Shown here piece by piece: positions 1,974 through 64,000 of a stretch of DNA of 64,000 nt (its first letter is position 1; the number at the start of each line of letters is the position of its first letter). The stretch covers positions 65,021 to 129,020 of the forward strand of contig JACOUP010000008.1 in NCBI GenBank assembly GCA_016177765.1, in the 5' to 3' direction. The translations under genes were made by a program, and so were the position numbers. The notes below the pieces were generated by a model that was not told where the DNA came from, did not search any database, and saw only the letters and a list, made by a program, of their open reading frames with translations. The stretch comes from Deltaproteobacteria bacterium (lineage in GTDB: Bacteria; UBA10199; JACPAL01; JACOUP01).

Positions 1974-2756
1974 TTACCGTTTTTTCAAAGGGTGCTCCAC
2001 CCAAAGGTGTCTTTTTTGCCGCGAGACCTCATTACGGACACCCCGGACAACGTTAGGGAGGCTGAGATGGCTCCCCATCTTCAGGAGCGTCTTGGGGACC
2101 CTGAGACCAGGATCGTTTTTCATATAAACAACAAAATCAGTAAGCCTTGAATTCTTGCCGTACGGCCCGATCTTGAAATACCCCTCGCTCTGTTTGAATG
2201 TCCCGATGAGCATCGTCCAATGGAGCTGGTACTGTCTCATCATGACCCCCGTTTCGTCCATCACCAACCGGTTGACCGCCCATCGGTTGGTCACCGGCCA
2301 CGGAAAATCATAAATCTCAAACAGATAACCCTCCCAAAAGGGTGTTCCACCCAAGGGTGCTCCACCCACCCACCAGGAGCCCTCTTTGATTTTCTCCAGC
2401 CGTGACCGCCAGGCCTCCAGCACCTCATCGGGCAAGGGACCGGTTTTGAGTGTCTGCCGGATTTGATCAAGGACCGGTGGCGATACCTCCTGAGAAACCA
2501 TCACGTGGGGAAAGATATCTTTCCAATGGTTGAAGTCCGTAACCAATAACCAGACCTGTTCCGGATCGGCAGGGATCAAGCCTTCGGCCTTGGCTTCAAA
2601 ACCGCCACTCTCTTCATGATAACGGGAAGCCGTAATAATTTTCCAGTCTTCGAGCTGTTTCTGCCGCCCTTGAGGCAAAGCCAACTCATCCGCCTTTAAA
2701 AACCCAGGAATGACCAGAAGAAAAAATAAAAGGGAAAGGGGAAATCGGTAGGGCAT
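1974..2756 (-). CDS. Secreted hypothetical protein (N-terminal signal peptide); its C-terminus (…HLWVEHPLKKR) is encoded by a copy of the 15-bp palindromic repeat.
   Basis: 260 aa with a hydrophobic N-terminus MPYRFPLSLLFFLLVIPGFLKA. Repeat copies lie at 1991-2009 and 2333-2370. Confidence 0.5.
   Translation of the reverse strand: MPYRFPLSLLFFLLVIPGFLKADELALPQGRQKQLEDWKIITASRYHEESGGFEAKAEGLIPADPEQVWLLVTDFNHWKDIFPHVMVSQEVSPPVLDQIRQTLKTGPLPDEVLEAWRSRLEKIKEGSWWVGGAPLGGTPFWEGYLFEIYDFPWPVTNRWAVNRLVMDETGVMMRQYQLHWTMLIGTFKQSEGYFKIGPYGKNSRLTDFVVYMKNDPGLRVPKTLLKMGSHLSLPNVVRGVRNEVSRQKRHLWVEHPLKKR
1991..2009. repeat. 15-bp-periodic palindromic repeat copy (GGTGctcCACCCaaaGGTG), 1.3 units
   Basis: Matches the dispersed GGGTG-N3-CACCC family. 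Encodes the C-terminal LWVEHP of the minus-strand gene. Confidence 0.6.
2333..2370. repeat. Palindromic repeat copy, ~2.5 units (GGTGttcCACCCaaGGGTGctcCACCC)
   Basis: In-frame in minus-strand gene 1974..2756, encoding GGAPLGGTP. Confidence 0.75.
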
Positions 2757-2760
2757 AAGT

Positions 2761-4137
2761 CTATCTTGTAGCTAGTTTGAGTTTACTGGCAGGGTCTTCC
2801 ATCGGGACAGGATAATTTCCGGTAAAGCAGGCGTCGCAGAACCATTCTCCCGGATTTTTTTCAAACCAATAGAGCCCTTGCGGTGAAAGATACCCTAAAG
2901 AGTCGGCGTCGATGAACTTTCTAATCTCATCAACACTCTTCGAGGCGGCAATCAGTTCATCCTTGTCTGGCGTATCGATCCCATAATAGCAAGGCCCTGT
3001 CGTCGGCGGGGAGGAGATCCGCACATGAACTTCCTTGGCCCCGGCGTCACGGATCATCTTGACGATCTTGCGGGAGGTTGTCCCGCGGACGATGGAATCA
3101 TCCACCGCCACAACCCTCTTGCCTTTGAGAACCTCCCTGACCGGGTTCAATTTAATTTTGACGCCAAAGTTCCGGATCGATTCCTTCGGTTCAATAAATG
3201 TCCGGCCCACATAATGGTTCCGGATGAGTCCAAACTGAAACGGGATTCCGGACTCTTCCGCATAACCCAATGCCGCCTGAACGCCGCTGTCCGGTATCGG
3301 AATCACCACATCCGCTTTTACCGGATGCTCACGGGCCAGTTGTTGTCCGAACCCTTTCCGCATCTCATAGACATCCCGGCCAAAGATATGACTGTCCGGC
3401 CTTGCAAAATAGATGAATTCAAAAATGCACATCGCCTTTTTGCGGGGGATCACGAACGGTTTTTGGGAATGGGCACCATTCTTGTCAATCACGACAACCT
3501 CACCCGGTTCGATCTCCCGAACGAATTCCGCCTCAATCAGGTCGAGGGCACAGGTCTCACTGGCCACGACCCACGAATCCCCCTTCTGTCCCAAAACCAG
3601 TGGACGCCAGCCGTAAGGGTCCCGAACGGCGATGATCCTCGTTTCCGTCAAAAAGAGCATCGAATAGGCACCGCGAATCTGGCTTAAGGCATCGATGATC
3701 CGGTCCACGAGGGAATTCTTGGGGGACTGCGCAATCAGGTGGATCACCACCTCCGTATCCATGGTCGACTGAAAAATCGCTCCATGGGCCTCCAGTTCGG
3801 CACGAATCTTCTGGGCATTGACAAGATTCCCGTTGTGGGCAACCGCCAGCCCCCCCCGGGAATAATCGATGGCGATCGGCTGGCAATTTTTCATCATGCT
3901 CTCGCCGGTCGTTGAATAGCGGACATGCCCGATCGCATTCTTGCCGGGGAGTCTCTGCAGTGCCGCCTCGGAAAAGATATCGGCGACATGACCCATATCC
4001 TTGTGACTGTGAAGAAGTTGGCCGTCGGAGGAGATGATCCCGGCGCTCTCCTGACCGCGATGTTGAAGGGCATAAAGCCCCAGGTAGGCAAGATTTGCCG
4101 CTTCCGGATGGTTATAAATGCCGACTATGCCACACAT
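2761..4137 (-). CDS. purF: Amidophosphoribosyltransferase
   Basis: N-terminal MCGIVGI (Ntn Cys1), a GATase-2 domain plus a PRTase domain, 458 aa. Overlaps purL by 13 bp. Confidence 0.9.
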
Positions 4138-6374
4138 TTTACAAAACCCTCTTTCCAGGCCTTCTGCAATTCGGCGGTCGGAACAGTGATCCAGGGATCC
4201 AGCCTAAAAGGCCCCCGGGTCACAACACCCAATCTTTGGACAGGGCATTTCTTAAGCCTAGCCCATCGGAGAAACCGCTGCAAATTGTTTTCCCGAACAG
4301 TGACAACAATTCGGGAGGCCGCTTCACCGAATAAAAGTAGGTCGGGGCGTAAGGGCGAACGGCCGTTCGCCCGTACCTTAATATCGACCCCCCACAATTG
4401 AGGGCCTGAAATACAACACTCTGCCAAGGCCACAGCCAAGCCCCCTTCCGAACAATCATGGGCGGAACGGATCCACCCCTTTTGAATCCCTTGGAGGCAG
4501 GTCTCCTGGACCTTCTTTTCCCTCGCCAACTTTAAAGGGGGCGGCGTGCCTTGAACCTTGCCATGAACAAGACTCAAATACTCCGACCCCCCCAACTCCC
4601 CTTCAGCATTTCCCAACAGAAAAACGAGATCCCCTTCTTCCTTGAACCATTGGGTACAATGGGTTTTGACATCCTCCAGCAGGCCAACCATGCCGATTGT
4701 TGGTGTCGGATAAACAGATTGACCGAGACTTTCATTATAAAAGCTGACATTGCCGGAGACAATCGGTGTTCCCAAAAACAGGCAGGCCTCCGTAATCCCC
4801 CGGATTGCCTGCTCAAACTGCCAGAGGATTCCCGGATTTTCCGGGTTTCCAAAATTCAGGCAGTCGGTCACCGCCAACGGTTTTGCCCCGGAACAGACAA
4901 TATTACGGGCCGCCTCGGCCACCGCATGCATCGCCCCTTGATAAGGGTCAAGGTAGCAATAGGTACTGTTGCAGTCGGTGGCCATCGCCACCCCCTTGGG
5001 TGAATCACCCCTTGGTGAATCACCCTTGAGCGAATCGCTCCTTTTTGTTCCTTTGATCCGAAGAACCGCGGCATCGCTTCCCGGCAAGATCACCGTATCA
5101 GTCCCGATCATATGATCGTACTGATGATAAACCCACTCCTTGTTGGCGATATTGGGAGAGGAGAGAAGCCGGAGCAGGACAGGCGTCATCTCCGGCGGCA
5201 TGGAAATAGAATCAAGACTCAAGGAATTGACTTCGCCCAAATAAGAGGGTTTCTCCCTGGACCGTTCATAGCAGGGGGCTTCTTCAGCGATCGGGTGCGC
5301 CGGGATCTCTCCCACCAGTTCCCTTTCATTGAAAATCCGCACCGTACTCCCTCGAACTACCTTGCCGATAGCGGAAACATCCAGACCCCACTTTTTGAAA
5401 ATCTTCTCCACCCTTTTTTCAGCTCCTTTTTTGGCCACAAACAGCATCCGCTCCTGAGATTCAGAAAGCATCACCTCATAAGGGGTCATCCCCACTTCAC
5501 GGAGCGGGACTTTCGAGAGGTCCAGATCGATCCCGACATTCCCCTTGGAGGCCATTTCAAAGGAGGAACAGGTGAGGCCGGCGGCCCCCATATCCTGAAT
5601 CCCCACCAGGTCCTTCGTCTGAAAAAGTTCCAGACAGGCCTCCATTAGCCGCTTTTCGGTAAAAGGGTCTCCGACTTGAACCGTCGGCCTTTTTTCTTCC
5701 GATTTTTCGTCAAAGACATCACTGGCCATCGTCGCCCCATGGATCCCATCCCGTCCTGTCTTGGAACCAACGTAAAAGACCGGATTCCCCACCCCTGCCG
5801 CCTTGGCCTTGAAGATCCTGTTTTTCTTCACGAGTCCAACGCACATCGCATTCACAAGGTTATTCCCGTTATAGGAAGAATGAAAAGAGACCTCGCCACC
5901 CACAGTCGGAATCCCCATGCAGTTCCCATAGCCGGCGATCCCGGCCACCACCCCTTTGACCAGATATTTTGTCTTGGGGTGATTGGGGGAACCAAACCGA
6001 AGGGAGTTCAAGAGGGCGATCGGCCTGGCCCCCATCGTAAAGACATCCCGAAGGATACCGCCGACACCGGTCGCCGCCCCCTGGAACGGTTCAATAAAAG
6101 AAGGATGGTTATGGCTCTCCATCTTGAAGACAAGACCCAGACCATCCCCGATATCTACGATACCGGCGTTTTCTCCCGGTCCGCAGAGGACCTGTTTCCC
6201 TTTTGTCGGCAGTTTTTTTAAGAAAACACGGGAGCTCTTGTAGGAACAGTGCTCGCTCCACATGACCGAAAAAATTCCCAGCTCCAAAAGATTCGGTTCC
6301 CGTCCCAGAATGGTGAGAATTTTCTGGTACTCTTCCGATGAGAGGCCATGTTGCTGGACAGTTTTAGTATCCAT
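4125..6374 (-). CDS. purL: Phosphoribosylformylglycinamidine synthase subunit II
   Basis: 749 aa with AIR-synthase-related tandem domains (…HNHPS…, GxGG motifs). Carries the in-frame repeat insert [12 protein letters not shown]. Confidence 0.9.
4988..5040. repeat. Palindromic repeat copy, ~3.5 units, in purL
   Basis: cccttGGGTGaatCACCCcttGGTGaatCACCCttgaGCGaatCGCtc, in-frame, encoding [12 protein letters not shown]. Confidence 0.85.
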
Positions 6375-6455: not shown

Positions 6456-6818
6456 TTACATCTTGGAGCAAGTCGTCTTAATCTTTTCAAGAACTCTGGG
6501 CAGATTTGTTTCCACTTCACTATTTAAAATTCGTAAAATACGGAACCCTCCGTTTCCTAAAATTTTATCTCTCTCTTCATCGTATATTTTTTGATCTTCT
6601 TTGAGGTGATGCCCTCCATCTAATTCAACAATCAGTCTCTTTTCAACGCAACAAAAGTCAGCTATATACCCCCTTAGAGGTAGTTGACGTTTAAACTTGA
6701 GCCCTTTAAGACCACGATTACGGAGCTCGTCCCAGAGCAAACATTCGGCCCGTGTCATGTCATGTCTCAAAATTCGAGCCTTGACAACCTCCTCTCTTCT
6801 TTCAACACGATTGACCAT
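6456..6818 (-). CDS. DUF559 (Vsr-like endonuclease domain) protein; low-GC inserted cassette
   Basis: 120 aa (…CLLWDELRNRGLKGLKFKRQ…GYIADF…VELDGGHH…) typical of DUF559. The region is markedly AT-rich relative to its neighbours and is flanked by hairpins. Confidence 0.7.
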   Translation of the reverse strand: MVNRVERREEVVKARILRHDMTRAECLLWDELRNRGLKGLKFKRQLPLRGYIADFCCVEKRLIVELDGGHHLKEDQKIYDEERDKILGNGGFRILRILNSEVETNLPRVLEKIKTTCSKM

Positions 6819-6889: not shown

Positions 6890-7639
6890 TTACAAAATCA
6901 CCGATTCAAACAACCGCCTCCCATCCACATTTCCCAGAAGCGGCTCGGCACACCGTTCCGGATGCGGCATCATCCCCAAGATATTCCCCTTTTCATTAAT
7001 AATGCCAGCAATTGAATCCAAAGAACCGTTCGGGTTCTCCCCTTCATAACGAAAGACAACCCTTTCTTCCCCTTTCAACCTTTTCAAGGTTTCCGGATCG
7101 CAAAAATAGTTCCCATCCCCATGGGCGATCGGCATCTTGACCACCACCCTCCCCCCCACCCCCATCCGCCCTCTCTGTCCCTTCGGGACATCTCCCCCGA
7201 TTGGCGGGGGAGTTCCCCCTCGAGGGAGGGGGATTAAGGGGGAGGGGGTGTAGAGTTTTGTAAACCGGGTATTCGTATTCTCCACCCTGAGGGAGACTGT
7301 CTTGCAAATAAATTGGAGGTTGGTGTTCCGCATCAGCACGCCGGGGAGAAGGCCCGCCTCGGTCAAGATTTGGAAACCGTTGCAGATCCCAAGAACAAGT
7401 CCACCCCTCCTGGCAAACGACAAGACCTCTTTCATGATCGGCGAAAAACGGGCAATGGCGCCGGTCCTCAAGTAATCCCCATAGGAGAAACCACCGGGGA
7501 GGATCAGACAATCCACTTTGGGGAGCCTGGTCTCCTTGTGCCATATAAAGGAGGCTGGCTGTTCCAGAAGGTCATGAATGGCATGGAAGCAGTCGTGATC
7601 ACAATTGGAACCGGGAAAGACGACGACACCAAATTTCAT
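6890..7639 (-). CDS. purQ: Phosphoribosylformylglycinamidine synthase subunit I (glutaminase); contains a ~30-aa in-frame palindromic insertion
   Basis: [17 protein letters not shown]…, catalytic Cys GICNGFQ, and HGEG-like PIAHGDGNY. An extra segment [36 protein letters not shown] lies between the conserved FTK and MPIAHG blocks. Confidence 0.85.
7141..7250. repeat. GC-rich cluster of mini-palindromes inserted in-frame within purQ
   Basis: Contains GTCCCttcGGGAC, CCCCCGattgGCGGGGG, CCCTCGAGGG (a perfect 10-bp palindrome) and AGGGGGattaAGGGGGAGGGGG. This is a different family from the 15-bp repeat. Confidence 0.6.
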
Positions 7640-9271: not shown

Positions 9272-10366
9272 ATGGCCCATGATACAATACCCCCGCCGGC
9301 AGGTGAAGCACCCTTGGGTGAAGCACCCTTCCCTTATATTGTTGTCGAACCGGATGCGGCCGATGGTCTGGAAGATCAGCTGGACGGCTCCGATATTCCG
9401 ATTAGCGAGGCGATTGAGGGGGATAATTACAAAATGGATCGGAAGACAACCCGGGCCTTTCAAGACGACGAGGAGGCGTCCGCCTATGAATCCGATCTTT
9501 TTCCCAACGACCGGGCGATTACCCTGACGGAACTCCGGCGCGCCTTTTACGCCACCTACGGGACTCAGGAATCCCGGGCCGTGGCTGAGCGCGTCTTCGC
9601 CCAGATGAAACAAGAGCTTGGTGATACAGTCAGTAAAGATGAAATTGGCCGTTTTCAACAGATCCTGACCGATCAGTCTGCTCATCTCGACGCCGGTGGA
9701 ATCATCATTGATAACGATCTTGATAAAGGGGGAAGACTCGCGATCTCCGTAAAAAGACAGGGTCTCACCAAAGAGGATATTCAGAGACGGATCATCCCTT
9801 ATGACACCTGGAAATATATGAAAGACCTCGAGTTGACTTTTGACGTCCCGGTACCCGAAGAGCCGAATGCCTATTATGAATTTACCATCACCCATCCGGG
9901 CGGCGTCGCCGGAAAGGTCTTTGGGATCTTTCCCGCCGTAACCAAGATCACCCTGGCGGGGGGAAACGGTCCTCTCGTTGCCAAGTGGGAGATGGTTCCT
10001 CATGACACGGCAAGAGGATTAGTGGATCAGTATAAGGGGAGGTTGACAGAAGTGATGCGGGAGGCCCGTTTAAAAGACAATCCGGATGAATACGCAAACC
10101 AGTTTAAGGAAGAACTGGAGTCCGTCCGGAGTGTTCAGGGAAGTGTCCGCTACGACCCCCAGACAGGGGTTCTGACCTATGAACAAAACGTGAAGGTCTC
10201 CTGGTCCCCCCCTTCCGACAGTTTCGTCATTGAGCCTCTCTTAACCGTCGCCCTTCATTATGCCGGTGACCCACGGGCCAAGAAAAGAACCAAAATCCCC
10301 TGCTGGATGAGTGAAGATGACGGCCCAATGAAAAAGAAATACCGCTACGAGCCGGCCCTGAAATAA
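9272..10366 (+). CDS. Hypothetical protein; N-terminus carries the repeat-encoded GEAPLGEAP
   Basis: 364-aa ORF with a good SD (aaggag, 7 nt upstream). No recognisable family. Confidence 0.5.
   Translation: MAHDTIPPPAGEAPLGEAPFPYIVVEPDAADGLEDQLDGSDIPISEAIEGDNYKMDRKTTRAFQDDEEASAYESDLFPNDRAITLTELRRAFYATYGTQESRAVAERVFAQMKQELGDTVSKDEIGRFQQILTDQSAHLDAGGIIIDNDLDKGGRLAISVKRQGLTKEDIQRRIIPYDTWKYMKDLELTFDVPVPEEPNAYYEFTITHPGGVAGKVFGIFPAVTKITLAGGNGPLVAKWEMVPHDTARGLVDQYKGRLTEVMREARLKDNPDEYANQFKEELESVRSVQGSVRYDPQTGVLTYEQNVKVSWSPPSDSFVIEPLLTVALHYAGDPRAKKRTKIPCWMSEDDGPMKKKYRYEPALK
9302..9330. repeat. Palindromic repeat copy, 2 units (GGTGaagCACCCttGGGTGaagCACCC)
   Basis: In-frame at the N-terminus of 9272..10366, encoding GEAPLGEAP. 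Opposite orientation relative to the coding strand. Confidence 0.8.
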
Positions 10367-11785: not shown

Positions 11786-13174
11786 TTATTCGTCAGGCCA
11801 GTACTGGTCAAGAAATTCTTTTTTGGTTTTCAGAAAGTCTGCATCATTTGGAAGATTCGCAATCTTCAAAAGTTGAATCGAGATCGCCACTGCACGGTCG
11901 GTCGAAGGCTTTAGAACCCCTTTTCGGGTCGTAATCTCGTCATCCTCAGGGAGGTGAAGGCTCCCCAGCCCCAGAAAATTGTTGGAGACAGCGTCCTGGC
12001 AGACATCCCTCTCCCAACTGCGGCAATGGGCAACGTAATCCTGGGCCAGGTGTATGGCGGCCGCCAGCTTCATCTGTCCCATGGCGGTCAATGGCCCACG
12101 GCCTGAGGCCAGGGAATCCCAATCCTCCTCCGGAAGGTATCTCAAGACCTCCTTATAAGAACGGATCCCCGCCGCCAGGGCCTTTTCGTCCCCCTTGGGT
12201 GAATCACCCATCATCGCGTTGGTAAAATGACGACCGGATTCCTGAATCAAACGGGCCAGGTCTCGATAAGGTTCAATCTGATGATACAAACTCCAAGGGC
12301 GATTGTACCGGTTCGAATCATTCTGGGGGAATTTGACGTTGCGCATCCTTGGATAAAAAAACCGCGGACGGAGTCTCTTCAGGCGAGCCACCACTTTGGG
12401 ATATTGTTCCTGATTAAAGTCATCATTCATCGCTCGAAGTTCCCTGAAGAGGCGGACCATTTCCCGATCATCCAAAAAAATGACTGGACTCTGATCCAGC
12501 TCTTTTTGAATCTGATGGATCTCGGAGAGCCACCGATCCATCGACTTCCGGATCATCTGACGCGTCTCTCCCATCGTTCGGAGTCTTACCTGATCCAACT
12601 CAGGATCAAACTTGACCCCCCTCATGGCGTGATGGGTCGTCCCTCTTTGGGCATTGAAAAGCAGACCCAGATAATCGACATAATTACCACGCCGTGTCGG
12701 CGGATAGTCCTGATAATCCAGCTCTTCGTAGAGTTTCAACGCTGATTCATCCCCCCTGGACCCGTAAAAGGGGAGTTCAAAATCTTTTCCAAGCCTCTCT
12801 AACGCGAACCGTGTAATATTGGCGTGGCCGGCCTCCTCATGACCGACCGGTTCTTCACCGACCGTAAGACTGGGGGGGAGCCAGATCACGGCCAAAAGTT
12901 TGAGCCCACTGACCCGCCAAGCCCCCTTCTCCAGCGAAGGGACATAGCTTCGATCCCAGCGGGCCTGTCCCCTTTCCACCGAGTGGAGAAGGTCCAGGAC
13001 AAGGGCCCCCTCCGGGAAACAGGCCGAAAGCCCGGACTCTTCCATCTCAAAACAGAGTTCGGAATTGACGAGTTTGCCGGTTTCCTCAGGGTAGGACCGG
13101 AGGGGACTGTTGTCGCTTGAATAGGCAACAACCCCCTCTGAGACAAGCCTGGCGACTGTTAGAAAGGCTCCCAT
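11786..13174 (-). CDS. Hypothetical protein, paralog B of the tandem pair; contains repeat-encoded GDSPKGD
   Basis: 462 aa with conserved blocks shared with paralog A, including a GH.NI….A N-terminal motif and HLAQDYVAHC. Confidence 0.55.
   Translation of the reverse strand: MGAFLTVARLVSEGVVAYSSDNSPLRSYPEETGKLVNSELCFEMEESGLSACFPEGALVLDLLHSVERGQARWDRSYVPSLEKGAWRVSGLKLLAVIWLPPSLTVGEEPVGHEEAGHANITRFALERLGKDFELPFYGSRGDESALKLYEELDYQDYPPTRRGNYVDYLGLLFNAQRGTTHHAMRGVKFDPELDQVRLRTMGETRQMIRKSMDRWLSEIHQIQKELDQSPVIFLDDREMVRLFRELRAMNDDFNQEQYPKVVARLKRLRPRFFYPRMRNVKFPQNDSNRYNRPWSLYHQIEPYRDLARLIQESGRHFTNAMMGDSPKGDEKALAAGIRSYKEVLRYLPEEDWDSLASGRGPLTAMGQMKLAAAIHLAQDYVAHCRSWERDVCQDAVSNNFLGLGSLHLPEDDEITTRKGVLKPSTDRAVAISIQLLKIANLPNDADFLKTKKEFLDQYWPDE
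12190..12209. repeat. Palindromic repeat copy, ~1.3 units (cccttGGGTGaatCACCC)
   Basis: In-frame in paralog B, encoding GDSPKG. Confidence 0.7.
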
Positions 13175-13242: not shown

Positions 13243-17565
<4,323 letters not shown>

Positions 17566-19504: not shown

Positions 19505-21217
19505 ATGGCCCCTCCTGATCCGATCAGTCCCGGCAGTCGTCCCCCTTTTCTTAACGACCCCTTTTTCGCCCGATACCGGGAATCGGTCGCCGCCCGGGAA
19601 TCGATCCTCCACCACACCACGGTTCATGCCCAACAGGTACAGGTCGAATTTTTGGGGGTCATCCATGGTGATTATCGTTTCCGTGAAACCGTTGTCTCCT
19701 CCGAACCGGGGGTCAGTTTTACAAAAACGAACGCCTGGAGCTATGAGGGGTTGCGGTGGCTCCGGCATGCCCCGGACCTCAGTGGGGCCGAGGCGATCTG
19801 CTACGCCGGGGCGGGAATCGCCGCCGTTGGGATCGCCGGCTGGGTCGCGGTGGAAGGGGGAATTGTCACCCTCGCGGCAAAAACCCCTGAAGCGGTGGCC
19901 GCCCTGCAAAAAACCATGATCGCCTATTGGACACAAAAACGGATCATCACGGCAGTCACCGCCGGAGGGGTGAACGTCGTTGTGGGGGAGGCAGTCTCTC
20001 CCCTCTTCGGCCATACGCCCGACGCGCGTGAATCGGTTTTGAATTTTGGTTTCGGGGCCGCCACAGGGCTGGTCTTCCCGCTCCCGGAGCTTGGGCTTCT
20101 GGAAGCGGTCGCCAACCGACAGTGGGTTCCCTATTTCCTGCAAAGTCTGCAAAGGGGGGCCACGCTCCATGGCCCGATGGGGGCGACCTGGTCGGTTGCA
20201 AATCTGGCGACCCATCCGGAACAAGACAGCGGACCGGCAGGTATCGCGAGCCATGCACTCAGCGGGTTTGTGGCCGGGGCCGCCCTCGGCCCGGCCGTGG
20301 ATAATCTCCTCTACGGCATCGGTGCCACCACGAGAAACTTTATCGAGATTGGACCGCCACGGGTTGCCGTCAAGGTCACCTCCGGAAAAACAACCGGGAG
20401 ACAACCTCCCCAAACAGAACCAGAGGGTGTGCCACCCAAGGGGATCTATTTCATGAAATCCCCTCCCTCCGAGTTCTTCAGCAGGGAGGTAGAGGTTGAT
20501 TTTGATCTACTCTTGAGACTCTGCGAAGAGCATGGAGCGGATGGCACTATTAAGGGCATGCTCGAAACCTTTCGAAGCATTGAGTCCGGTAAAAAGATTG
20601 CTGTCCGTGTGGACATGGCCCGCGATGGAACACTTTCTTTCTATCTCCCCAACTTCAGTCAAAGGACCATCCATCTCCCCACAAGAGAATATAGGGCATG
20701 GCGCGAATTTTTTGAGGAGCATACCGGCATTGAATTCCCGAGGGCAGAATCGGGGGTGGCGGAAACGGTCCCCCCCGTTGCCGCTGAGAGAGATACCGTC
20801 CCATTTCAGCCGGGAGAACCCGCCACCCCTCCCTTCACGAGACCCGAAACCGCCGAGCACCCCTCACTAAGAGAACCGCCCGACTTTCCTCCCGGCACAA
20901 CAGCAGTGGTTCCAAGAACAGCCTTTCCAGCCTTTGATGCCACCCCCAGAGATGTGAGGACCCTTGTCACGAATCAAAATCGTCCGATCGGAAAGGCCCT
21001 GGACCTTCTCAAAGGAGATCCTCCTGAATCGTTACTCGCCTTCGATTCCCTCCTGGAACAAGCGATCAAGACCGGGGAAGATCAGTACGCAAAACTCCCG
21101 AACGGCTGGTCGGTCCAGATCACCCGCACCCCGGCTTCAGACCCTATCAGCGCCCCTCCCGGACAATCGGCCGAGCTCCAGCCGGTTCTTCACTTCCAAT
21201 TTTTCATGGAAGATTAA
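19505..21217 (+). CDS. Hypothetical protein (Gly/Ala-rich N-half, Pro-rich C-half); contains repeat-encoded GVPPKG
   Basis: 570-aa ORF. No recognisable domain. Confidence 0.45.
   Translation: MAPPDPISPGSRPPFLNDPFFARYRESVAARESILHHTTVHAQQVQVEFLGVIHGDYRFRETVVSSEPGVSFTKTNAWSYEGLRWLRHAPDLSGAEAICYAGAGIAAVGIAGWVAVEGGIVTLAAKTPEAVAALQKTMIAYWTQKRIITAVTAGGVNVVVGEAVSPLFGHTPDARESVLNFGFGAATGLVFPLPELGLLEAVANRQWVPYFLQSLQRGATLHGPMGATWSVANLATHPEQDSGPAGIASHALSGFVAGAALGPAVDNLLYGIGATTRNFIEIGPPRVAVKVTSGKTTGRQPPQTEPEGVPPKGIYFMKSPPSEFFSREVEVDFDLLLRLCEEHGADGTIKGMLETFRSIESGKKIAVRVDMARDGTLSFYLPNFSQRTIHLPTREYRAWREFFEEHTGIEFPRAESGVAETVPPVAAERDTVPFQPGEPATPPFTRPETAEHPSLREPPDFPPGTTAVVPRTAFPAFDATPRDVRTLVTNQNRPIGKALDLLKGDPPESLLAFDSLLEQAIKTGEDQYAKLPNGWSVQITRTPASDPISAPPGQSAELQPVLHFQFFMED
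20424..20443. repeat. Palindromic repeat copy (aGGGTGtgcCACCCaaGGGG)
   Basis: In-frame in 19505..21217, encoding GVPPKG. Confidence 0.65.
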
Positions 21218-24656: not shown

Positions 24657-25112
24657 ATGATAGGAGCCGTTGTCGTGACTCATGGCAACATCGGGACGGA
24701 AATGATCCGGGCCGCCGAATCGATCGTGAAAGAGAAACTCCCGTTTCTTGGCGTCGCCCTGGAACATCACGAATCAGTCCCTACGATGAAAAGCAAGATC
24801 CGGGAGGCGATCGCTTCCTGTCATTCCCCTCAAGGGGTTCTTCTCCTCTCCGATCTGTTCGGAGGGACTCCCTGCAATCTCTGTCTCTCCTTTCTGAAAG
24901 AAGTAAAGGTGGAGGTGGTCACCGGGGTCAATCTCCCGATGCTGATCAAACTCGCCCATTATCGGGAAAACAGGCCGCTGAAAGAAGTGGCCCGTTTCAT
25001 CAGAGAATATGGCAAAAAAAACATCACCTTGGCAAGACAGGTCCTCAAGGGTGATCCACCCAGGGGTGAGTCACCCAAGGGACAAGGGTCCGGTCTATCG
25101 CGATCAGGCTAG
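24657..25112 (+). CDS. PTS EIIA component, mannose/fructose (EIIA-Man) family, with a repeat-encoded C-terminal tail
   Basis: MIGAVVVTHGNIGTEMIRAAE is a typical EIIA-Man N-terminus. The C-terminus KGDPPRGESPKGQGSG is encoded by the repeat. Confidence 0.75.
   Translation: MIGAVVVTHGNIGTEMIRAAESIVKEKLPFLGVALEHHESVPTMKSKIREAIASCHSPQGVLLLSDLFGGTPCNLCLSFLKEVKVEVVTGVNLPMLIKLAHYRENRPLKEVARFIREYGKKNITLARQVLKGDPPRGESPKGQGSGLSRSG
25046..25081. repeat. Palindromic repeat copy, ~2.5 units, at EIIA C-terminus / ptsH start
   Basis: caaGGGTGatcCACCCagGGGTGagtCACCCaaGGG encodes KGDPPRGESPKG in the EIIA frame. It contains both candidate GTG starts of ptsH in the +1 frame. Confidence 0.85.
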
Positions 25113-28612: not shown

Positions 28613-29346
28613 AGGGGGTCATCCTGGCTGCGGGACAGGGGAGCCGGCTCGGGTTACTCACTCGATCACGACCGAAGGCGCTTGTCCCGGTTCTGGAAAA
28701 ACCCCTTATCGAGTACATCCTGACCCTTTGTGATGAAGCCTCTCTGGAGGAGATCATCGTTGTTGGGGGGTATCAGTTTTATAAATTGGCGGCCGTTTTG
28801 GAAAAAAGAGCCGGTGGCACACCCTTGGGTGGCACACCCTACCGCCTCCTCCAAAACCGAGAGTACAAAAAAGGGAACCTGCTGACCCTTGTTTGCGCCC
28901 TCCCTTTTCTGGAGGGGGATTTTTTTATTGCCAATGCCGATCACATTTACCCCCCATCCCTTTTCCACAGCTTTCTGAAAAACGCCAAAGAGATTTCAGC
29001 GGCCTGTGATTTTGACCGTCAACTCTCCGGTGACGACATGAAGATCCGTCATGATTCTCAAAAACGACTTTTGGCGATCAGCAAGAAGCTCCCTACTTAT
29101 GACGGCGGTTATATCGGCATGACCTCCTGTACCAAAAAGAGGCGTGGGCTCTACGAACGGGCCGTTGAGGCCACCTTTCAAAGGAAAGGGACAAAGGCGG
29201 TTGTGGAGGAGGTGCTGGAGACACTGATCCTGTGGGGTGAAAATCCGCTTGTTCACGATGCCAGCGGGCACCGTTGGTGGGAAGTCGATACCCCTTCAGA
29301 GATTCAAACAGTGGAAAGAGAACTCGCCTTGTTCCGTGCCCGGTAG
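28609..29346 (+). CDS. Sugar-/alcohol-phosphate nucleotidyltransferase (MobA-like NTP-transferase fold), with an in-frame repeat insert GGTPLGGTP
   Basis: N-terminal MKGVILAAGQGSRLG. Its start overlaps the preceding stop (4-bp overlap). Confidence 0.7.
   Translation: MKGVILAAGQGSRLGLLTRSRPKALVPVLEKPLIEYILTLCDEASLEEIIVVGGYQFYKLAAVLEKRAGGTPLGGTPYRLLQNREYKKGNLLTLVCALPFLEGDFFIANADHIYPPSLFHSFLKNAKEISAACDFDRQLSGDDMKIRHDSQKRLLAISKKLPTYDGGYIGMTSCTKKRRGLYERAVEATFQRKGTKAVVEEVLETLILWGENPLVHDASGHRWWEVDTPSEIQTVERELALFRAR
28814..28839. repeat. Palindromic repeat copy, 2 units, variant GGTGGCACACCC
   Basis: ggTGGCACaccctTGGGTggcacaccc, in-frame in the nucleotidyltransferase, encoding GGTPLGGTP. Confidence 0.8.
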
Positions 29347-31471: not shown

Positions 31472-32139
31472 TCCCCTACCGAAGTTCCCAAAAGAGAAAG
31501 GGGTATGCCACCCGAACGTTTCCCTGGGTCACTGTGGCCCTGATTCTGATGAATGTCGCTGTTTTTTTCTATGAGGTCACCCTTCCGGCCGCTCAACTGA
31601 AAGACTTTTTTAAAACCTTTGCCCTCGTCCCGGGCCATTTTCGGCCTCTGGGGTTGATCACCGGGCTCTTTCTTCATGGCGGGTGGCTCCACCTTATCGC
31701 CAACATGCTCTACCTCTGGGTCTTTGGAGACAACGTCGAGGAAAAAATGGGACGCCATTCCTTCCTCAATTTTTACCTCGCCTCCGGCATCATTTCTTTC
31801 CTTGCTCAGGTCGCCTTTGACCCCGGCTCCAGCCTTCCCCTGATCGGTGCCAGCGGGGCGATCGCCGGAATTCTGGGGATCTACCTCCGGCTTTTCCCAA
31901 AGTCACACGTCACCGTCCTTGTCCCGATCTTCATTTTCTTAAGACGAATGATCCTCCCGGCGTGGCTGGTCCTCGGTTTCTGGTTTGTCCTCCAATTATT
32001 GGAAGGATTGCTCTCTCTCCAACAGTTGGAGGCTGGAGCGGCCTCTTCAGGGGGGATCGCCTTTTTTGCCCATATTGGCGGGTTTTTGTTTGGGATTCTC
32101 GTCGGGCCATTGTTTGTAAAAAGAAAAAAACGGGGCTAA
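31468..32139 (+). CDS. Rhomboid-family intramembrane serine protease
   Basis: GASGAIAGILG (the GxSG active site), a downstream AHIGGF histidine, and a 6-TM profile. ATGA-type overlap with the previous gene. Confidence 0.8.
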   Translation: MIPYRSSQKRKGYATRTFPWVTVALILMNVAVFFYEVTLPAAQLKDFFKTFALVPGHFRPLGLITGLFLHGGWLHLIANMLYLWVFGDNVEEKMGRHSFLNFYLASGIISFLAQVAFDPGSSLPLIGASGAIAGILGIYLRLFPKSHVTVLVPIFIFLRRMILPAWLVLGFWFVLQLLEGLLSLQQLEAGAASSGGIAFFAHIGGFLFGILVGPLFVKRKKRG

Positions 32140-35661: not shown

Positions 35662-38168
35662 TCCCTTCCCTTCCTAAAGAGCTTCTGGATCAAGCCGCTT
35701 CCCCACGGGAGGCAGGGCACTTTTTTTCGGCCTGGTTCACAGCCTACCGTCAGGAAAGGGGAAATCCGCCTGATTTAAAACATCCCTCGGGCTCAAAAAT
35801 CCTTTCCCTCTTTGGGAATTCGGCATGGCTTTCCCAATTCCTCGGCAATCACCCCCTTCTCTACGATTCCCTCGGTTCCTCCCCCTTCCTCACCAAAAGA
35901 AAAGGCCTGGAAGACCACCGGGAGGACCTTCGACAAGTCCCCAAGGGTGATTCACCCAAGGGTGTGCCACCCAAGGGCGATTCGCCCACGGGCGACTTTC
36001 ATTCAAACCTCCTCCTCTATAAAAACAGCGAGCTTTTAAGGATCGCCCTCCGTTCTCTTGAAATCGGCTCTTCTGAAGAAGAAATCGGTCACGAACTTTC
36101 CGACCTGGCCCAAGCGATTGTCGAAAAGGCCCATCAGGTGCTGGGAGCCATTCATCAACGGGAATTGGGTCTTCGAAAAATTCCCCTCTGTTGCCTCGGT
36201 CTTGGAAAACTGGGAGGCCAGGACCTCAATTTCAGCTCCGACATTGATCTCCTCTACCTCTATGGTGACGATGAAGAACGAGGCTCTGAACTCTCCACCC
36301 ACGAATACTTTGTGAAGCGGGTTGAAAGAGAACGGCATTTCCTGAGCGACAAGACCGATTCTTTCCTCTATCGCGTCGATCTGGATCTTCGTCCGGAAGG
36401 GAAAAAAGGGACGCTTGTCAATTCACTCCCCGCCCTCGAAGAGTATTACGAAACCTGGGGGGCGGAATGGGAGAGAATCGCCCTCATCAAGGGACGATGC
36501 CTCGCCGGTGACAAGCCACTGGCCGAAAAATTCATCAAGATGGCCCACCCCTTTGTCTGGCGGAAAAGCTTCGAAGACTCCGCCTTGAACCAGATCAAGA
36601 CAATCAAGGAGAAAAGTGATGCCCTTTTGAGAAAAAAAGTCGTTCCCACTTTTCATGTCAAACTCGGGAGCGGCGGAATCCGGGAAGTCGAACTATTCGT
36701 CTGGATTTTTCAGTTGATCTTTGGCGGCCGCCACCCGCAACTCCAGGAAGCCCATACCCTTCAAGCCCTTCGCCAGCTCAAGGCCCTCTCCCTCATCCCC
36801 GCCAGGGAGACCAAACAGTTGGAAAAGGCCTATCTTTTCCTGCGGCGGATAGAAAACCGACTGCAAATGCAAGAGAACCAGCAAATTCATCAGATTCCGG
36901 AATCAGCCGAGGGACAGGAGGCCCTCGCCCGTCTCCTCGGTTACCCCCAGGAAACACGAAAAGCGGCCCGCAAGGCTTTCTTGGAAGACCTCGAACAAAC
37001 ACGGACCTATGTTCAAAAACATTTCGCCAGTCTCTTTGAAAGAGGACCTAAAAAACAACGCTCCTGGAAGGAAGAGCAGACGCTCAGGCTCCAGTCAGAA
37101 TTGGAGCCGCTACCGACTGTTGAAGAAAAATTCGACAGCCTGCGCCTCTTTAAAAAAGAGGTGACCGGTGAAATCATTCAGGAAGACCAATCGGGAAAAC
37201 TTTCTTTTACGAACTTTCTTGTCAGAAATACAGAACTGGCCGAGGTGATCCTCCAGGAGGCCTATCAGATCGCCCTTGCCGAAATGGCCGCCCGCTATGG
37301 TCCCCTGAAGGGAGAGGGACTCGCCATTATCGGCATGGGAAAGCTGGGGGGAAGAGAGTTGACTTACCGGTCGGACCTGGACCTCCAATTCCTCTATGAC
37401 GAAAATTCCTACAACAAAACCCTGTCCCTTCAGGAATATTTTGCAAAACTCGCTCAGAGGGTCCTCTCTTGTCTGACAATCATCACCGAACAGGGATGGG
37501 CCTACAAGATCGACACCGCCCTCCGTCCTTCGGGAAGCGCCGGTGTCCTTGTCGGTTCACTGGCCTCTTTTCTGGAATACCACGAAAAAGAGTCAAAAAC
37601 CTGGGAAAAACAGGCCCTTCTCAAGGCGAGACCGGTTGCCGGCGACCCTTTTCTTTGTGACAAGGCCGCCGTTTTTCTGAAAGGGATCCCGTTCCGCTTT
37701 CCCCCCTCCCCTTCCCTCCTCCAGGATATCGCCTCTCTCCGGACCCGGATGGAAAGAGAGATTGCCAGAGAGACCGAGTCATCCTGGAATTTGAAGACAG
37801 GATACGGCGGTATTGTGGATATTGAATTTCTGACACAAGGCCTGCAACTCCTTCATGGACGGGATTTTAGTGAATTGGCGGAGCCCAATACGCTCCTGGC
37901 CCTTGAAAAACTCTCAGGACTCCAATTTCTCACTCCCCAGGAGACCAATGACTTGAAGGAAGGGTACCAATTCCTCCGCCGTCTGGAAACCGCACTCCGG
38001 CTCCAATTGGAGAGCCCCACCGATTGTCTTGAATTAACCGCTCCCTGGCTCCCCACGATGGCAACAGCCCTCAATTTTTCTTCAGCAACGGCACTTGTCG
38101 ACGCGGCCCGCTCCTGGAGGAAAAAAATTCGCGGCCTTTATGAAGGGGTGTTTGGAAGTCGGGGCTAG
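35658..38168 (+). CDS. glnE: Bifunctional glutamine synthetase adenylyltransferase/adenylyl-removing enzyme
   Basis: Two nucleotidyltransferase modules (GLGKLGGQDLNFSSDIDLLYLY and IGMGKLGGRELTYRSDLDLQFLY). The N-terminal region contains 3.5 tandem repeat units. ATGA overlap with the helicase stop. Confidence 0.85.
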   Translation: MIPSLPKELLDQAASPREAGHFFSAWFTAYRQERGNPPDLKHPSGSKILSLFGNSAWLSQFLGNHPLLYDSLGSSPFLTKRKGLEDHREDLRQVPKGDSPKGVPPKGDSPTGDFHSNLLLYKNSELLRIALRSLEIGSSEEEIGHELSDLAQAIVEKAHQVLGAIHQRELGLRKIPLCCLGLGKLGGQDLNFSSDIDLLYLYGDDEERGSELSTHEYFVKRVERERHFLSDKTDSFLYRVDLDLRPEGKKGTLVNSLPALEEYYETWGAEWERIALIKGRCLAGDKPLAEKFIKMAHPFVWRKSFEDSALNQIKTIKEKSDALLRKKVVPTFHVKLGSGGIREVELFVWIFQLIFGGRHPQLQEAHTLQALRQLKALSLIPARETKQLEKAYLFLRRIENRLQMQENQQIHQIPESAEGQEALARLLGYPQETRKAARKAFLEDLEQTRTYVQKHFASLFERGPKKQRSWKEEQTLRLQSELEPLPTVEEKFDSLRLFKKEVTGEIIQEDQSGKLSFTNFLVRNTELAEVILQEAYQIALAEMAARYGPLKGEGLAIIGMGKLGGRELTYRSDLDLQFLYDENSYNKTLSLQEYFAKLAQRVLSCLTIITEQGWAYKIDTALRPSGSAGVLVGSLASFLEYHEKESKTWEKQALLKARPVAGDPFLCDKAAVFLKGIPFRFPPSPSLLQDIASLRTRMEREIARETESSWNLKTGYGGIVDIEFLTQGLQLLHGRDFSELAEPNTLLALEKLSGLQFLTPQETNDLKEGYQFLRRLETALRLQLESPTDCLELTAPWLPTMATALNFSSATALVDAARSWRKKIRGLYEGVFGSRG
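35939..35994. repeat. Palindromic repeat copy, ~3.5 units, in glnE
   Basis: ccaaGGGTGattCACCCaaGGGTGtgcCACCCaaGGGCGattCGCCCacGGGCG encodes PKGDSPKGVPPKGDSPTGD. Confidence 0.9.
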
Positions 38169-61996: not shown

Positions 61997-62157
61997 AAAT
62001 GAAACCTATCCCTCCACCCCTCTCTAAAGCAATCCATATGCCAAAATAAGGCCTTCCATGAGCAATATAACCCACTGAAAACAAAGCTACTTTTAATGGT
62101 CTAGCCCCTTGGAGGGATTTTCCTGGAGGGAAACTGGAGACCCAAGACCTCAATTTC

Positions 62158-62186
62158 AGGGTGATTCACCCAAGGGTCGCTCACCC
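62158..62186. repeat. Palindromic repeat copy, 2 units, at the nagZ 3' end
   Basis: agGGTGattCACCCaaGGGTCgctCACCC. On the minus strand the unit's GGG-TGA supplies the final Gly codon and the TGA stop of nagZ. Confidence 0.8.
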
Positions 62187-63185
62187 AAACCTCTTTTTCA
62201 CCTTTTGTATCCGGACCAAGGCCTGTCTGACCTGCCCCTCGAAGATCCCCCCTTTTTCGGAGGCCAGACGATGATTGAGGGCATCATAGACCTGACTGGC
62301 GGCATTCACATACCGGCAGATCAACAGGTGATCTGTCCCTGCCTGAATGGCCAGCTGGGCCGCCTGCCCCAGGGAATAATGATTCGTCACCCCCTTCATC
62401 AAGAGGTCATCTGTAAAAATAACCCCCTTATACTTCATCTGTTCCCTCAGAATCCTGGTGACAAATTGCGCCGAGAGAGAGGCGGGGAGTTGAGAATCAA
62501 CCTTGGGGAGAAGGAGATGGGCCGTCATGATCCCCTGAATACCGGCCTTGATCGCCCTGGCAAAGGGAACCAACTCCGCCTTTTTGAGACGCTGGAGATC
62601 ACTGGTCAATGTCGGCAATTCCTTGTGGGAATCCCCCTGAGGACCAGCCACTGTCCCCCCATGACCCGGAAAATGTTTTCCACAAGCCATCACCCCCTGG
62701 CTCTCCAACCCCTTCATAAAAAGGATTCCGGCCTTCGAGACCCACTCAGGATCTTTCCCGAAGGATCGATCCCCAATGACCGTATTGACGGAACTGGTCA
62801 GGACATCCAGGACAGGGGCAAAATCAAGATTGAAACCAAGCGCCCTGAGATCCTTGCCGATTTTCCGGGCGGTATCGGTAATCAACCCCCCCTTCTTTGT
62901 TCTTTTGAGTTCCTGCCCCATCTCCTCAGCGGAGGGGAGGAGTCCAAAACCGCTCCGCCAGCGGTTTATACGCCCTCCCTCCTGATCGATCGCAACCCAC
63001 AAGTCCTTTCTCCCGGTCACCCTTTTCAGACTGCGGATCAGTTTCTGGATCTGGCGCCTGTTTTCCATGTTGCGGGAGAAGAAGATCACCCCGCCCGGTT
63101 TGGCCATGGAAAGAAATCTTTCCTCTTCGTGAAGGAGGGAGAGCCCTTCCAAACCAACCATGATGAGATTTCCAATATCGGACAT
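62181..63185 (-). CDS. nagZ: Beta-N-acetylhexosaminidase (GH3)
   Basis: …KHFPGHGGT…, with a D-[LI]-D catalytic region …IDQEGGRI…. Its TGA stop lies inside a repeat copy. Confidence 0.85.
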   Translation of the reverse strand: MSDIGNLIMVGLEGLSLLHEEERFLSMAKPGGVIFFSRNMENRRQIQKLIRSLKRVTGRKDLWVAIDQEGGRINRWRSGFGLLPSAEEMGQELKRTKKGGLITDTARKIGKDLRALGFNLDFAPVLDVLTSSVNTVIGDRSFGKDPEWVSKAGILFMKGLESQGVMACGKHFPGHGGTVAGPQGDSHKELPTLTSDLQRLKKAELVPFARAIKAGIQGIMTAHLLLPKVDSQLPASLSAQFVTRILREQMKYKGVIFTDDLLMKGVTNHYSLGQAAQLAIQAGTDHLLICRYVNAASQVYDALNHRLASEKGGIFEGQVRQALVRIQKVKKRFG

Positions 63186-63267
63186 CAGACGTCTCTAACC
63201 CATCTCTAACAAAATTTAAAGGCAAAATTGACAGTGTGCGCCCTTAAGCCTATAATGGTTCCAAGGT

Positions 63268-64000
63268 GGTGAGAAAAATATTCAATCCTTTTATCCTGTT
63301 TTTAATAACGGCTCTTTTTACCCAGACACTCCTGGCATCACCGCTATCGCCGAAGGGTGATTCCCCCAAGGAACGCCTTCAAAAAAATATCAGGACTATT
63401 CTTGAGACAAGGCTCAAAAAGTCCACGGTTTCGATTCAGATAGTCTCCCTCGGAGAAAGCGGGCCTGAGGTTGTCTTCGAAGAAGGGGCCGGGCGTCTTT
63501 TAAATCCGGCCTCCAATATCAAACTGGTCACCGCCGCCGCGGCACTCGACGCCTTGGGTCCCGATTATACCCTGCCGACCCGTTTCTACGCCGACTCCGT
63601 TCAGGAAGGATGGGCCTCCAACCTCTGGATCAAGGGGTACGGCGACCCGCTCCTGATCACCGAGGAGGTGTCAAAGATCGTCCTGCAACTGGCCACCTTG
63701 GGTCTCCGCGGCGTTCAGCAAAACCTCCTGGTCGATACCTCCTTTTTTGACCGCCGTTCCAAAATGACCTATTTTTCAGAGGCCTCGGGACGTCTCTACA
63801 GTGTCCTGACAGGGGCCCTCTCCTTTAACTTCAACCGTCATTTCCGGCATCTTAACCGGGGTGTCGCTTTGCAAAAAGCAACGACCGTGGGGGACGAGAT
63901 GAATCCGGCCTATGACGAAGAAGGATCACCACTCCAGAACGATCTGGACCCCGGCCTCGCAACCGGTCAGGTCTTCAAAGAGGCGTTGGCAAAGGCGGGG
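63268..64000 (+). CDS. dacB: Partial D-alanyl-D-alanine carboxypeptidase/endopeptidase (PBP4, peptidase S13); 3' end beyond window
   Basis: My own translation: VRKIFNPFILFLITALF… signal peptide, then the SxxK region …LNPASNIKLVTAAAALDALGPDY… The N-terminal region carries repeat-encoded KGDSPK. Confidence 0.6.
63352..63371. repeat. Palindromic repeat copy, ~1.3 units (degenerate: GGGTGattCCCCC)
   Basis: In-frame just after the predicted PBP4 signal peptide, encoding PKGDSPK. Confidence 0.6.

Follow-up and report, generated by a model that had tools for sequence, protein, structure and literature searches.

The stretch of DNA described here, hereafter the window, comprises 64,000 nt of a metagenome-assembled genome (MAG) of a Deltaproteobacteria bacterium (GCA_016177765.1; contig JACOUP010000008.1, positions 65,021 to 129,020) and carries, among many others, the genes purL, purQ, purB, pyrG, glnE, purE, purD, purH, nagZ, and dacB, along with genes for an EIIA-Man protein, HPr, an NTP-transferase, an LPG_synthase_TM/UPF0104 protein, a rhomboid protein, an AddB-like PDDEXK nuclease, a UvrD-like helicase, Sua5, and a histidine kinase. 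The dominant repeat of the window in repeat-finder output is a 15-bp palindromic unit that, when oriented by its linker, consists of AA, GGGTG, a 3-nt loop, and CACCC, its commonest form being AAGGGTGATTCACCC. The unit appears to be an undescribed and unusually small dispersed repeat, probably mobile, that resides in about twenty genes; full-text literature searches, both with the exact DNA and peptide strings and for palindromic 15-bp repeats inserted in frame, yielded no account of it, and an Rfam scan of the window returned no known RNA family.

A 15-bp palindromic repeat within genes

The exact pattern GGGTG-N3-CACCC (GGGTGNNNCACCC) has 19 occurrences in the window, where dinucleotide-preserving shuffles predict 0.10 and none of 100 shuffles reached 19; with one mismatch allowed, the figures are 25 observed and 3.1 expected. 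In a census of perfect hairpins with 5-bp stems and 3-nt loops, the GGGTG stem alone was over-represented (19 copies versus at most 3 for any stem in the shuffles). Tandem Repeats Finder reported eight arrays of the family, each with 1.9-3.5 copies at a period of 15 bp, and a position-weight-matrix scan with a threshold of 14 gave 26 matches in the window and 0 in 48.7 kb of related genomes. The copies group into 17 arrays of 1 to 3.5 units each between positions 1988 and 63372 (~1 array per 4 kb), and two further arrays are present in 13 kb of flanking sequence from the same genome (Table 1). The units belong to the loop subfamilies ATT (~11 units) and TGC (~7 units) or are single-base variants of these. 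The palindromic 15-bp family named in the original prediction, which was made from the sequence of the window, is therefore real, and family searches agreed with the host genes it listed (purL, pyrG twice, glnE, EIIA-Man/HPr, the UvrD-like helicase, the NTP-transferase, UPF0104/LPG_synthase_TM, nagZ, and dacB).

Assemblers can stumble on repeats, and the source is a MAG; an assembly or sequencing artefact such as an adapter or a chimeric k-mer is nonetheless so improbable that we set it aside, because independent assemblies of at least eight other runs (within SRR12113384 to SRR12113431) gave contigs that were 100% identical through several of the arrays. Long open reading frames (ORFs) also stay open through all of the copies, and the unit is present in unrelated public assemblies.

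The predicted fold of each unit in single-stranded DNA is a hairpin of 5 bp closed by a loop of 3 nt, with an energy of -4.1 to -5.6 kcal/mol. Of the stem positions in 28 distinct units, 95.7% are paired, compared with 47-60% when the partner column is slid, and the loops vary freely while the stems stay conserved. Two stem pairs are changed on both sides: one change gives GGGCG/CGCCC and was seen at three loci belonging to two organisms, and the other gives GAGCG/CGCTC and was seen in purL. In the dacB unit, a synonymous change from TCA to TCC breaks the stem. These patterns are consistent with a structural constraint on the stem but are modest evidence for it, because the variants may be inherited subfamilies and not independent events.

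Sixteen of the 17 arrays in the window lie wholly inside ORFs, and the seventeenth straddles the stop codon of nagZ. The absence of intergenic copies from the window has no statistical weight, because the coding density is ~93% (0.93^17 ~0.3). Two placements had to be revised. An array that had been assigned to purB at 9301-9328 falls in ORF 9272-10366(+), the start of purB being at 9167. The nagZ gene is a minus-strand ORF whose last codon and stop come from the GGG-TGA of the unit (stop at 62181-62183), so that 22 nt of the array (62159-62180) extend beyond the stop; we found no terminator-like site there that would suggest a terminator role for this 3' array. The arrays are also unevenly spread, with 15 in the first 36 kb and 0 across 36000-62150, a 26-kb stretch containing purE, purD, purH, Sua5, and the histidine kinase gene, for which we estimate P ~0.003 for 17 random points.

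Reading frames and insertion sites

The same DNA is translated in all six frames. In the sense frames of the AA-oriented unit, f0 reads AAG GGT GAT TCA CCC (KGDSP), f1 reads RVIHP, and f2 contains GGG TGA; in the antisense frames, r0 contains GGG TGA, r1 reads GESPL, and r2 reads VNHPW. Counting each gene context in Table 1 for the window genome, f0 is used ten times, r1 four times, f2 and r0 twice each, and f1 and r2 once each. An earlier count of at least three frames was consequently too low, while the statement that both orientations occur is borne out. The codons of KGDSP are invariant between genes in at least eight genes, although P = 0.002 for a single KGDSP to be written as AAG GGT GAT TCA CCC under the codon usage of the genome, and an identical 28-nt block is read as GGTPLGGTP in the NTP-transferase and as LGWHTLGWHT in the helicase. 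The use of six frames, the invariant codons, and the block read in two frames identify a DNA-level element and not a protein motif.

Stop codons sharpen this picture. In f2 and r0, an ATT-loop unit has a TGA, but the TGC-loop unit AAGGGTGTGCCACCC has no stop in any of the six frames, and every copy that lies within an ORF in f2 or r0 is of the TGC type or derived from it (the helicase, the rhomboid protein, and the lipoprotein at L022:410). The only array in r0 that is not of the TGC type is the one that ends nagZ with its TGA. The argument that the helicase copy is stop-free in the frame that would otherwise contain TGA therefore holds and extends to every such copy.

A selected protein motif, in which the tracts would be G-x-x-P-K/L pentapeptide linkers that arose by convergence or were conserved, could draw on the 14 of ~20 gene contexts that read G-x-x-P-K or G-x-x-P-L and on the hydrophilic, coil-forming nature of the peptides, which sit at loops and termini. 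Identical DNA, however, also encodes LGWHT, RVIHP, WVEHPL, GYAT, and a stop codon, the codons are invariant at the probability per unit given above, the orthologs of relatives lack the tracts, and one copy is intergenic; the frame and codon evidence effectively refutes this reading already, and we regard it as exceedingly improbable.

The closest relative found was in Logan run SRR32573209 (loci L011 and L020), with a PurL 72% identical to that of the window and ~43 kb of syntenic DNA in which there was no exact copy of the unit; the related contig L021 likewise contained no exact copy. All 10 of the copies that could be compared with orthologs are insertions, and none arose by in-place substitution. 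As the original prediction anticipated for genomes lacking the element, relatives have no tract at the orthologous positions, and the alignments show clean in-frame gaps of mostly 5, 10, or 15 residues (9 at the mid-gene copy of pyrG). The gaps in the helicase and the NTP-transferase were placed against close homologues, PDB sequences being too remote. In an AlphaFold model of PurL (mean predicted local distance difference test score, pLDDT, of 84.5), residues 443-456 have pLDDT values below 50 and form a coil between strands at 436-440 and 461-467. By our tally, 10 of the ~20 gene contexts fall within the outer 15% of the protein (binomial P ~0.05), a placement consistent with copies surviving where they are tolerated.

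When read in the AA orientation, most arrays run on into AAG, AAGG, or AAGGG, and single units stand between 4-8 nt direct repeats of AAGGG(TGA) that are indistinguishable from a partial next unit. Four empty sites of relatives are given in Table 1. The one intergenic copy, an array at locus L009 that follows the stop codon of dnaN and precedes the start of gyrB, merges with the Shine-Dalgarno sequence AAGGAG, an AAGG-like site. In the genes of the copy-free relative, AAGGG falls in f0:f2:f1 at 43:23:11 and CCCTT in r1:r0:r2 at 32:32:8, and these counts, less the stop frames, predict the observed excess of f0 and r1. Frame bias alone is thus no proof of peptide selection, because an AAGGG-like target can account for the strong K-G-x-x-P excess just as peptide selection can.

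Table 1. Arrays of the 15-bp unit in the window, in flanking contigs of the same genome, and at loci of other genomes, with the peptide encoded and the comparison with orthologs
Location	Strand	Units	Host gene and placement	Peptide	Frame	Difference from orthologs	Empty site in relative
1988..2010	+	single, AAGGGTGCTCCACCC, with a partial unit	C-terminal tail of ORF 1974-2756(-)	WVEHPL (antisense)	r2		
2338..2367	+	two, loops TTC and CTC	within ORF 1974-2756(-)	GGAPLGGTP	r1		
4993..5042	-	three; unit 3 is the doubly compensated variant GAGCGATTCGCTC	purL		f0	+15 residues vs all 24 closest homologues aligned and the solved T. thermophilus PurL (3VIU)	AAG AAG GGT
9301..9330	-	two, CTT loops	N-terminus of ORF 9272-10366(+)	GEAPLGEAP	r1		
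12195..12214	-	single	ORF 11786-13174(-)	GDSPKG	f0		
16891..16910	+	single, canonical	mid-pyrG	KGDSPR	f0	+9 residues vs pyrG of relative	
17497..17516	+	single, compensated variant AAGGGCGATTCGCCC	pyrG C-terminal tail	KGDSPKG	f0	tail differs from relative; no clean gap placeable	
20423..20442	+	single, TGC loop	ORF 19505-21217(+)	GVPPKG	f0		
25047..25081	+	two	EIIA-Man/HPr gene overlap: EIIA-Man tail, HPr N-terminal extension	KGDPPRGESPKG (EIIA-Man); RVIHPGVSHP (HPr)	f0 (EIIA-Man); f1 (HPr)	HPr +10 residues vs relative; the same DNA forms the EIIA-Man C-terminal tail and displaces the EIIA stop codon	GAA AAA GGT (EIIA-Man)
28812..28841	-	two, TGC/GCA loops	NTP-transferase	GGTPLGGTP	r1	+5 residues	
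30103..30134	-	two	LPG_synthase_TM/UPF0104	QGDSPKGGSPK	f0	+10 residues vs relative	
31498..31513	+	single, degenerate	rhomboid N-terminus	KGYAT	f2 (GGG-TGx frame)	+5 residues vs relative	CGC AAG ACG
32596..32615	+	single	AddB-like PDDEXK nuclease	GGSPK	f0	+5 residues vs L021, +7 vs L020	GAA GGG AGT (L021)
34966..34998	-	two, TGC/GCA loops	UvrD-like helicase	LGWHTLGWHT	r0	+10 residues, clean, vs four closest homologues	
35943..35992	+	~3.3; loops ATT, TGC, then GGGCG variant	glnE N-terminal region	KGDSPKGVPPKGDSPTG	f0		
62157..62188	+	two	3' end of nagZ (62181-63185, minus strand, GH3 domain)		r0		
63353..63372	+	single	just after dacB (Peptidase_S13) N-terminus	KGDSPK	f0		
L025:10557-10614 (7 kb left of window, same genome)		four, LGKAPLGETPLGETPLGEAPLG	first 35 codons of a called acyltransferase		r1		
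L022:410 (flank, same genome)			lipoprotein signal-peptide junction		f2		
L013 (GC 0.39)			RNase R, inside RNB domain			~9-residue insertion vs B. subtilis RNase R	
L015			CheA linker				
L018			peptide deformylase (def) C-terminus				
L007			gamma-glutamyltranspeptidase (GGT) N-terminus				
L004			TPR protein tail				

Distribution of the unit and how it may spread

A two-unit pattern was sought in 185,579 species-representative genomes, a collection that does not include the window's own genome, and was found at 7 loci, three of them clearly of the unit family; a scan of JGI metagenomes gave 8 loci. The carriers are other uncultured bacteria with GC contents of 0.39 to 0.57, and the unit combinations ATT+GTT and ATT-x-GGGCG recur at unrelated loci of different organisms. 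The viral contigs and plasmids that were scanned lacked the unit, so that nothing points to a phage or a plasmid as its vector. Overall, few genomes carry the family, yet it is widespread among several uncultured lineages, and in the window genome it has bloomed. At one locus, contigs from different metagenomes that are 99.98-100% identical over 2.4-5.3 kb differ in unit number, with 3 units in L004/L012 and 5 in L014. Two further loci, L016 (Ga0315273, GC 0.63; 971-1043) and L019 (Ga0136615, GC 0.72; 307-409), have arrays of 5-7 GGGTG-N3-CACCC units with a 15-bp period, other linkers (CC and AG), and the peptides GVPPG and KGDAPRGDPP; they may belong to the same family or be ordinary proline-rich protein repeats.

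We consider it highly probable that the copies represent a DNA-level dispersed insertion element filtered by selection, as had been proposed originally. For the explanation as a whole, we lean towards mobilisation by an enzyme acting in trans over enzyme-free template switching. A non-autonomous, hairpin-forming 15-bp module would spread as DNA, in whole-unit quanta, into junction-like A/AGGG sites, and replication slippage would then expand or contract the arrays; the survivors would be those with a length that is a multiple of 3, free of stops, and situated in loops, linkers, or termini, where each would add a 5-, 10-, or 15-residue coil to a working protein. We infer an enzyme, encoded elsewhere in the genome, that would recognise the hairpin and cut at the unit junction. 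The likeliest candidate would be a single-strand HUH/Y1-type "peel-and-paste" activity for which each unit boundary serves as both an end and a new target, and this would explain the unit quantisation, the mixed-loop arrays, the shared multi-unit blocks, and the burst in one genome. The complete picture, in which a single-strand nuclease or transposase acting in trans moves an ultra-short 15-nt, five-codon hairpin transposable module adapted to genes, in whole units, to sites resembling A/AGGG, is put forward tentatively, and the assignment of that enzyme to the HUH/Y1 class is slightly more doubtful.

Several observations weigh against this explanation. The 77 kb examined (~5% of the genome) contained no gene for a transposase, an HUH/RAYT protein, a reverse transcriptase, or an integrase, and there is no clear strand bias (~12 versus 7 relative to the plus strand), which lagging-strand single-strand transposition would predict. 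The 5-bp stem of the unit is shorter than known HUH recognition hairpins, and the AAGGG "target", which shares bases with the stem, is indistinguishable from a partial unit. The relatives are only 50-77% identical, so that the empty sites merely approximate the sequence at the time of insertion, and the 5-unit array in the comparison of 3 with 5 units is only 26 bp from the end of its contig. Polymorphism between empty and filled sites or in unit number was sought in other samples containing the window organism, and all contigs were 100% identical. The gap at 36000-62150 is accounted for neither by GC content nor by gene strand. When a mobilising enzyme was sought, a single lineage-specific extra gene, encoding a DUF559/Vsr-like endonuclease of 120 residues (6456-6818, minus strand), turned up beside an array, but nothing connected it with the repeat; it lies between purL and purQ, which are adjacent in the relative (L011).

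An enzyme-free origin at the DNA level would have nascent strands that stall at the hairpins switch template, moving to another array or a displaced strand through AAGGG/GGG microhomology, copy units, and switch back, with slippage altering unit number and with the burst in this lineage reflecting the loss of a hairpin-processing or anti-recombination function and not the gain of a transposase. The short and variable microhomology at the junctions (AAG to AAGGGTGA), the homogeneity of loops within arrays (CTT/CTT, TGC/TGC, and ATT three times) together with the difference of 3 versus 5 units, both of which point to slippage, the lack of a mobile-element enzyme nearby, and the lack of strand bias all speak for it. 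A switch between loci on 3-6 nt of homology is rare, however, and would hardly yield the few hundred precise insertions that we estimate genome-wide by extrapolation from the density, the mixed arrays, or the identical multi-unit blocks across organisms; moreover, the closest relative is rich in AAGGG sites yet copy-free. We judge template switching unlikely as the whole explanation, and it is clearly the most credible of the alternatives to enzymatic mobilisation. Local origin of each copy fares much worse. Here an AAGGGTG seed would be extended by snap-back (quasi-palindrome) synthesis of the second arm and duplicated in tandem, without copying between loci, and the empty site of purL in the relative (AAGGGT) and the constant stems with variable loops are what snap-back from a common 5-mer would give. 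The loops are nonetheless not site-specific (ATT in 11 units, TGC in ~7), the AA linker is constant, the full 15-mer is identical across unrelated genes and organisms, and GGGTG is missing from most empty sites; the recurrence of the ATT, TGC, and GGGCG subfamilies across loci suggests the same, and we hold this origin to be very improbable.

The palindrome could also be a functional signal that is raised in frequency by biased uptake or conversion, whether it serves DNA uptake or, as REP elements do, binding by a nucleoid, gyrase, or repair protein, in which case the coding copies would merely be those that proteins tolerate. Uptake sequences favour particular reading frames in coding DNA, and the density (~1 per 2.4-4 kb), the indifference of a palindrome to orientation, and the conserved stems with free loops would suit such a signal. 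Every copy that could be compared with orthologs is instead an insertion, none having arisen by substitution, and compensatory stem changes suit a hairpin better than a sequence-specific protein site; a very uneven distribution with 0 copies in 26 kb, and head-to-tail tandem units with a polar AA linker, are unexpected for a symmetric site. A signal is accordingly improbable, if less so than local origin.

Should transposition of the module prove true, it would amount to a natural pentapeptide-scanning mutagenesis of an entire proteome in which the commonest frame encodes a Gly/Pro/Ser/Lys coil, and the genome would lend itself to the search for the enzyme or repair defect by which very small hairpins are moved, a question shared with Rickettsia palindromic elements (RPEs) and mitochondrial GC clusters. 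If confirmed genome-wide, the unit would be the smallest dispersed insertion element known in bacterial coding sequence and a rare repeat in which both length (five codons) and sequence (coil-forming, with four to six open frames) appear matched to life in genes. The copies naturally map where essential enzymes (such as PurL, PyrG, GlnE, HPr, and UvrD-like helicases) tolerate insertion, and their unit number, which varies between near-identical strains, could serve as a strain-typing marker. They also call for caution in the annotation, homology modelling, and phylogenetics of MAG proteins, because the lineage-specific indels of 5-15 residues found here derive from the repeat and carry no phylogenetic signal.

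Relation to known elements and neighbouring observations

Small dispersed palindromic repeats in coding sequence are already known, and what sets the present unit apart is its length of five codons, its tandem quantisation, and a subfamily open in six frames. RPEs are single elements of ~105-146 bp that are confined to Rickettsia and lie in-frame inside genes (Ogata et al. 2000, summarised in PMC3184786). As with RPEs, palindromic repeats here lie in-frame within coding genes that include housekeeping genes, and a peptide is added while the protein is kept; in-frame insertion with the gene left intact was found in purL, pyrG, HPr/EIIA, the NTP-transferase, LPG synthase, the rhomboid protein, the AddB-like nuclease, and the helicase. 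In contrast to RPEs, a 15-bp unit is iterated 1 to 5 times, its sequence is unrelated, the phylum is different, and there is an apparent AAGGG-like junction; the arrays measure 20-50 bp in the window and at most 75 bp in relatives, not ~100-150 bp. MITEs and other small repeats (Correia, BOX/RUP, Nezha, and BRE; PMC3184786, PMC10969869) resemble the unit in being non-autonomous, dispersed, and in some cases located inside genes, BRE having been found in ~9 genes (PMC3184786, PMC10969869). MITEs are 50-500 bp long, have a core between terminal inverted repeats, and make a defined target duplication, and coding insertion is exceptional for them and the rule here. The whole unit is a 5-3-5 hairpin with a 2-nt linker, and the flanks of the arrays share no similarity beyond it; the 4-8 nt direct repeats beside single units may be either a target duplication or a partial next unit. 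The analogy to RPEs and MITEs drawn in the original prediction describes a resemblance only, and the unit lacks at least one defining feature of each family.

Mitochondrial GC clusters of yeast and hairpin elements of sponge and fungal mitochondria are small and GC-rich, have conserved stems, faster-evolving loops, and AG/ACT direct repeats, and occur singly, in tandem, or merged (PMC4478555, PMC2800124); they are sometimes found in coding regions and are patchy between close relatives (PMC4478555, PMC2800124). The hairpin itself, the conserved stem with a variable loop, the flanking repeats, and the mix of single and tandem copies are shared with the unit (95.7% pairing, AAGG(G) flanks, and 1-5 units). 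The mitochondrial clusters differ in being organellar, in AT-rich hosts, 30-45 bp or longer, mostly intergenic, and without a unit of codon length, whereas the window belongs to a bacterial chromosome of 52-58% GC. REP elements are imperfect palindromes of 20-40 nt headed by GTAG or CGTC, extragenic, and associated with RAYT (PMC3733652). The REP/REPIN-RAYT system is alike in its short, GC-rich, high-copy hairpins, and its trans-acting enzyme for single-strand hairpins is the best mechanistic model on offer (PMC3733652, PMC3184786). The unit (AAGGGTGNNNCACCC) contains neither GTAG nor CGTC and has a palindrome of 13 nt, its arrays are placed in ORFs as described above and not extragenically, and the clustering in inverted pairs that is usual for REPs is not seen; no RAYT (Y1/HUH) gene was present among the ORFs of the window and its 13 kb of flanks.

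HIP1 of cyanobacteria, which is palindromic, and the uptake sequences USS/DUS are short motifs that are very frequent in coding DNA, with a frame preference set by protein tolerance, and they arise by point substitution that leaves protein length unchanged. The unit departs from these in that 10/10 comparable copies are insertions. In pentapeptide-scanning mutagenesis, Tn4430-derived random insertions of 15 bp, made up of a 5-bp target duplication and 10 bp of element ends, are recovered at permissive sites that the survivors mark. That method is an engineered procedure of two steps, transposition followed by restriction deletion, and not a natural process, but its outcome is alike. The host proteins had no match to the pentapeptide-repeat family (Pfam Pentapeptide, A(D/N)LXX), their tracts span 1-3.5 units, and the tract of PurL is predicted by its AlphaFold model to be a disordered coil, unlike the beta-helix of pentapeptide-repeat proteins.

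Several individual arrays have further peculiarities. EIIA-Man and HPr (24657-25371) overlap by 104 nt, compared with 50 nt in the relative, and both genes translate the array in their shared segment, each in its own frame; the N-terminus of HPr is extended by ~30 residues, which is unusual, and the extension is also kept in the relative (MxKKTSPWQ...). In the pyrG tail, 17512-17535, the GGGCG-variant unit is followed by AAGGGTGAGGAGATGTCTCCCAC, which has a unit-like start and a second palindrome, GGAGA-TG-TCTCC, at the loop position. The 32 nt immediately upstream of the nagZ array (62128-62159) are 81% identical to 36204-36235 in glnE, ~220 nt downstream of the array in that gene, and this match may be due to chance. 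ORF 1974-2756(-) was also called as a gene on contig L025. The N-terminal 150 residues of the acyltransferase on that contig do not align with the 346-residue ortholog of the relative, and its array may belong either to the 5' leader or to an N-terminal extension with uncertain limits.

A separate in-frame insertion of 31 residues relative to the relative lies in purQ (7160-7291, minus strand) and is made of other GC palindromes (GGGGGAACTCCCCC and GTCCCGAAGGGAC). Its stretch GGA GAT GTC CCG AAG GGA resembles a decayed GDSPKG unit, and the insertion may be an array that has degenerated with age or have come from a different hairpin; a second hairpin family suggested by these palindromes was set aside, as the hairpin census shows no other over-represented stem. 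Five very large ORFs of 1395, 1372, 844, 677, and 450 residues (46190-50377 and 52495-56613 on the minus strand, 13243-15777, 17438-19471, and 10373-11725) have no Pfam or NCBIfam family, and none contains the repeat. At the 3' end of ORF 17438-19471 there is a tandem repeat that also has a 15-bp period (GGGCCTGCTCCAGCC; 19406-19440, 2.3 copies, 85% matches), which is non-palindromic and unrelated in sequence to the GGGTG-N3-CACCC family.

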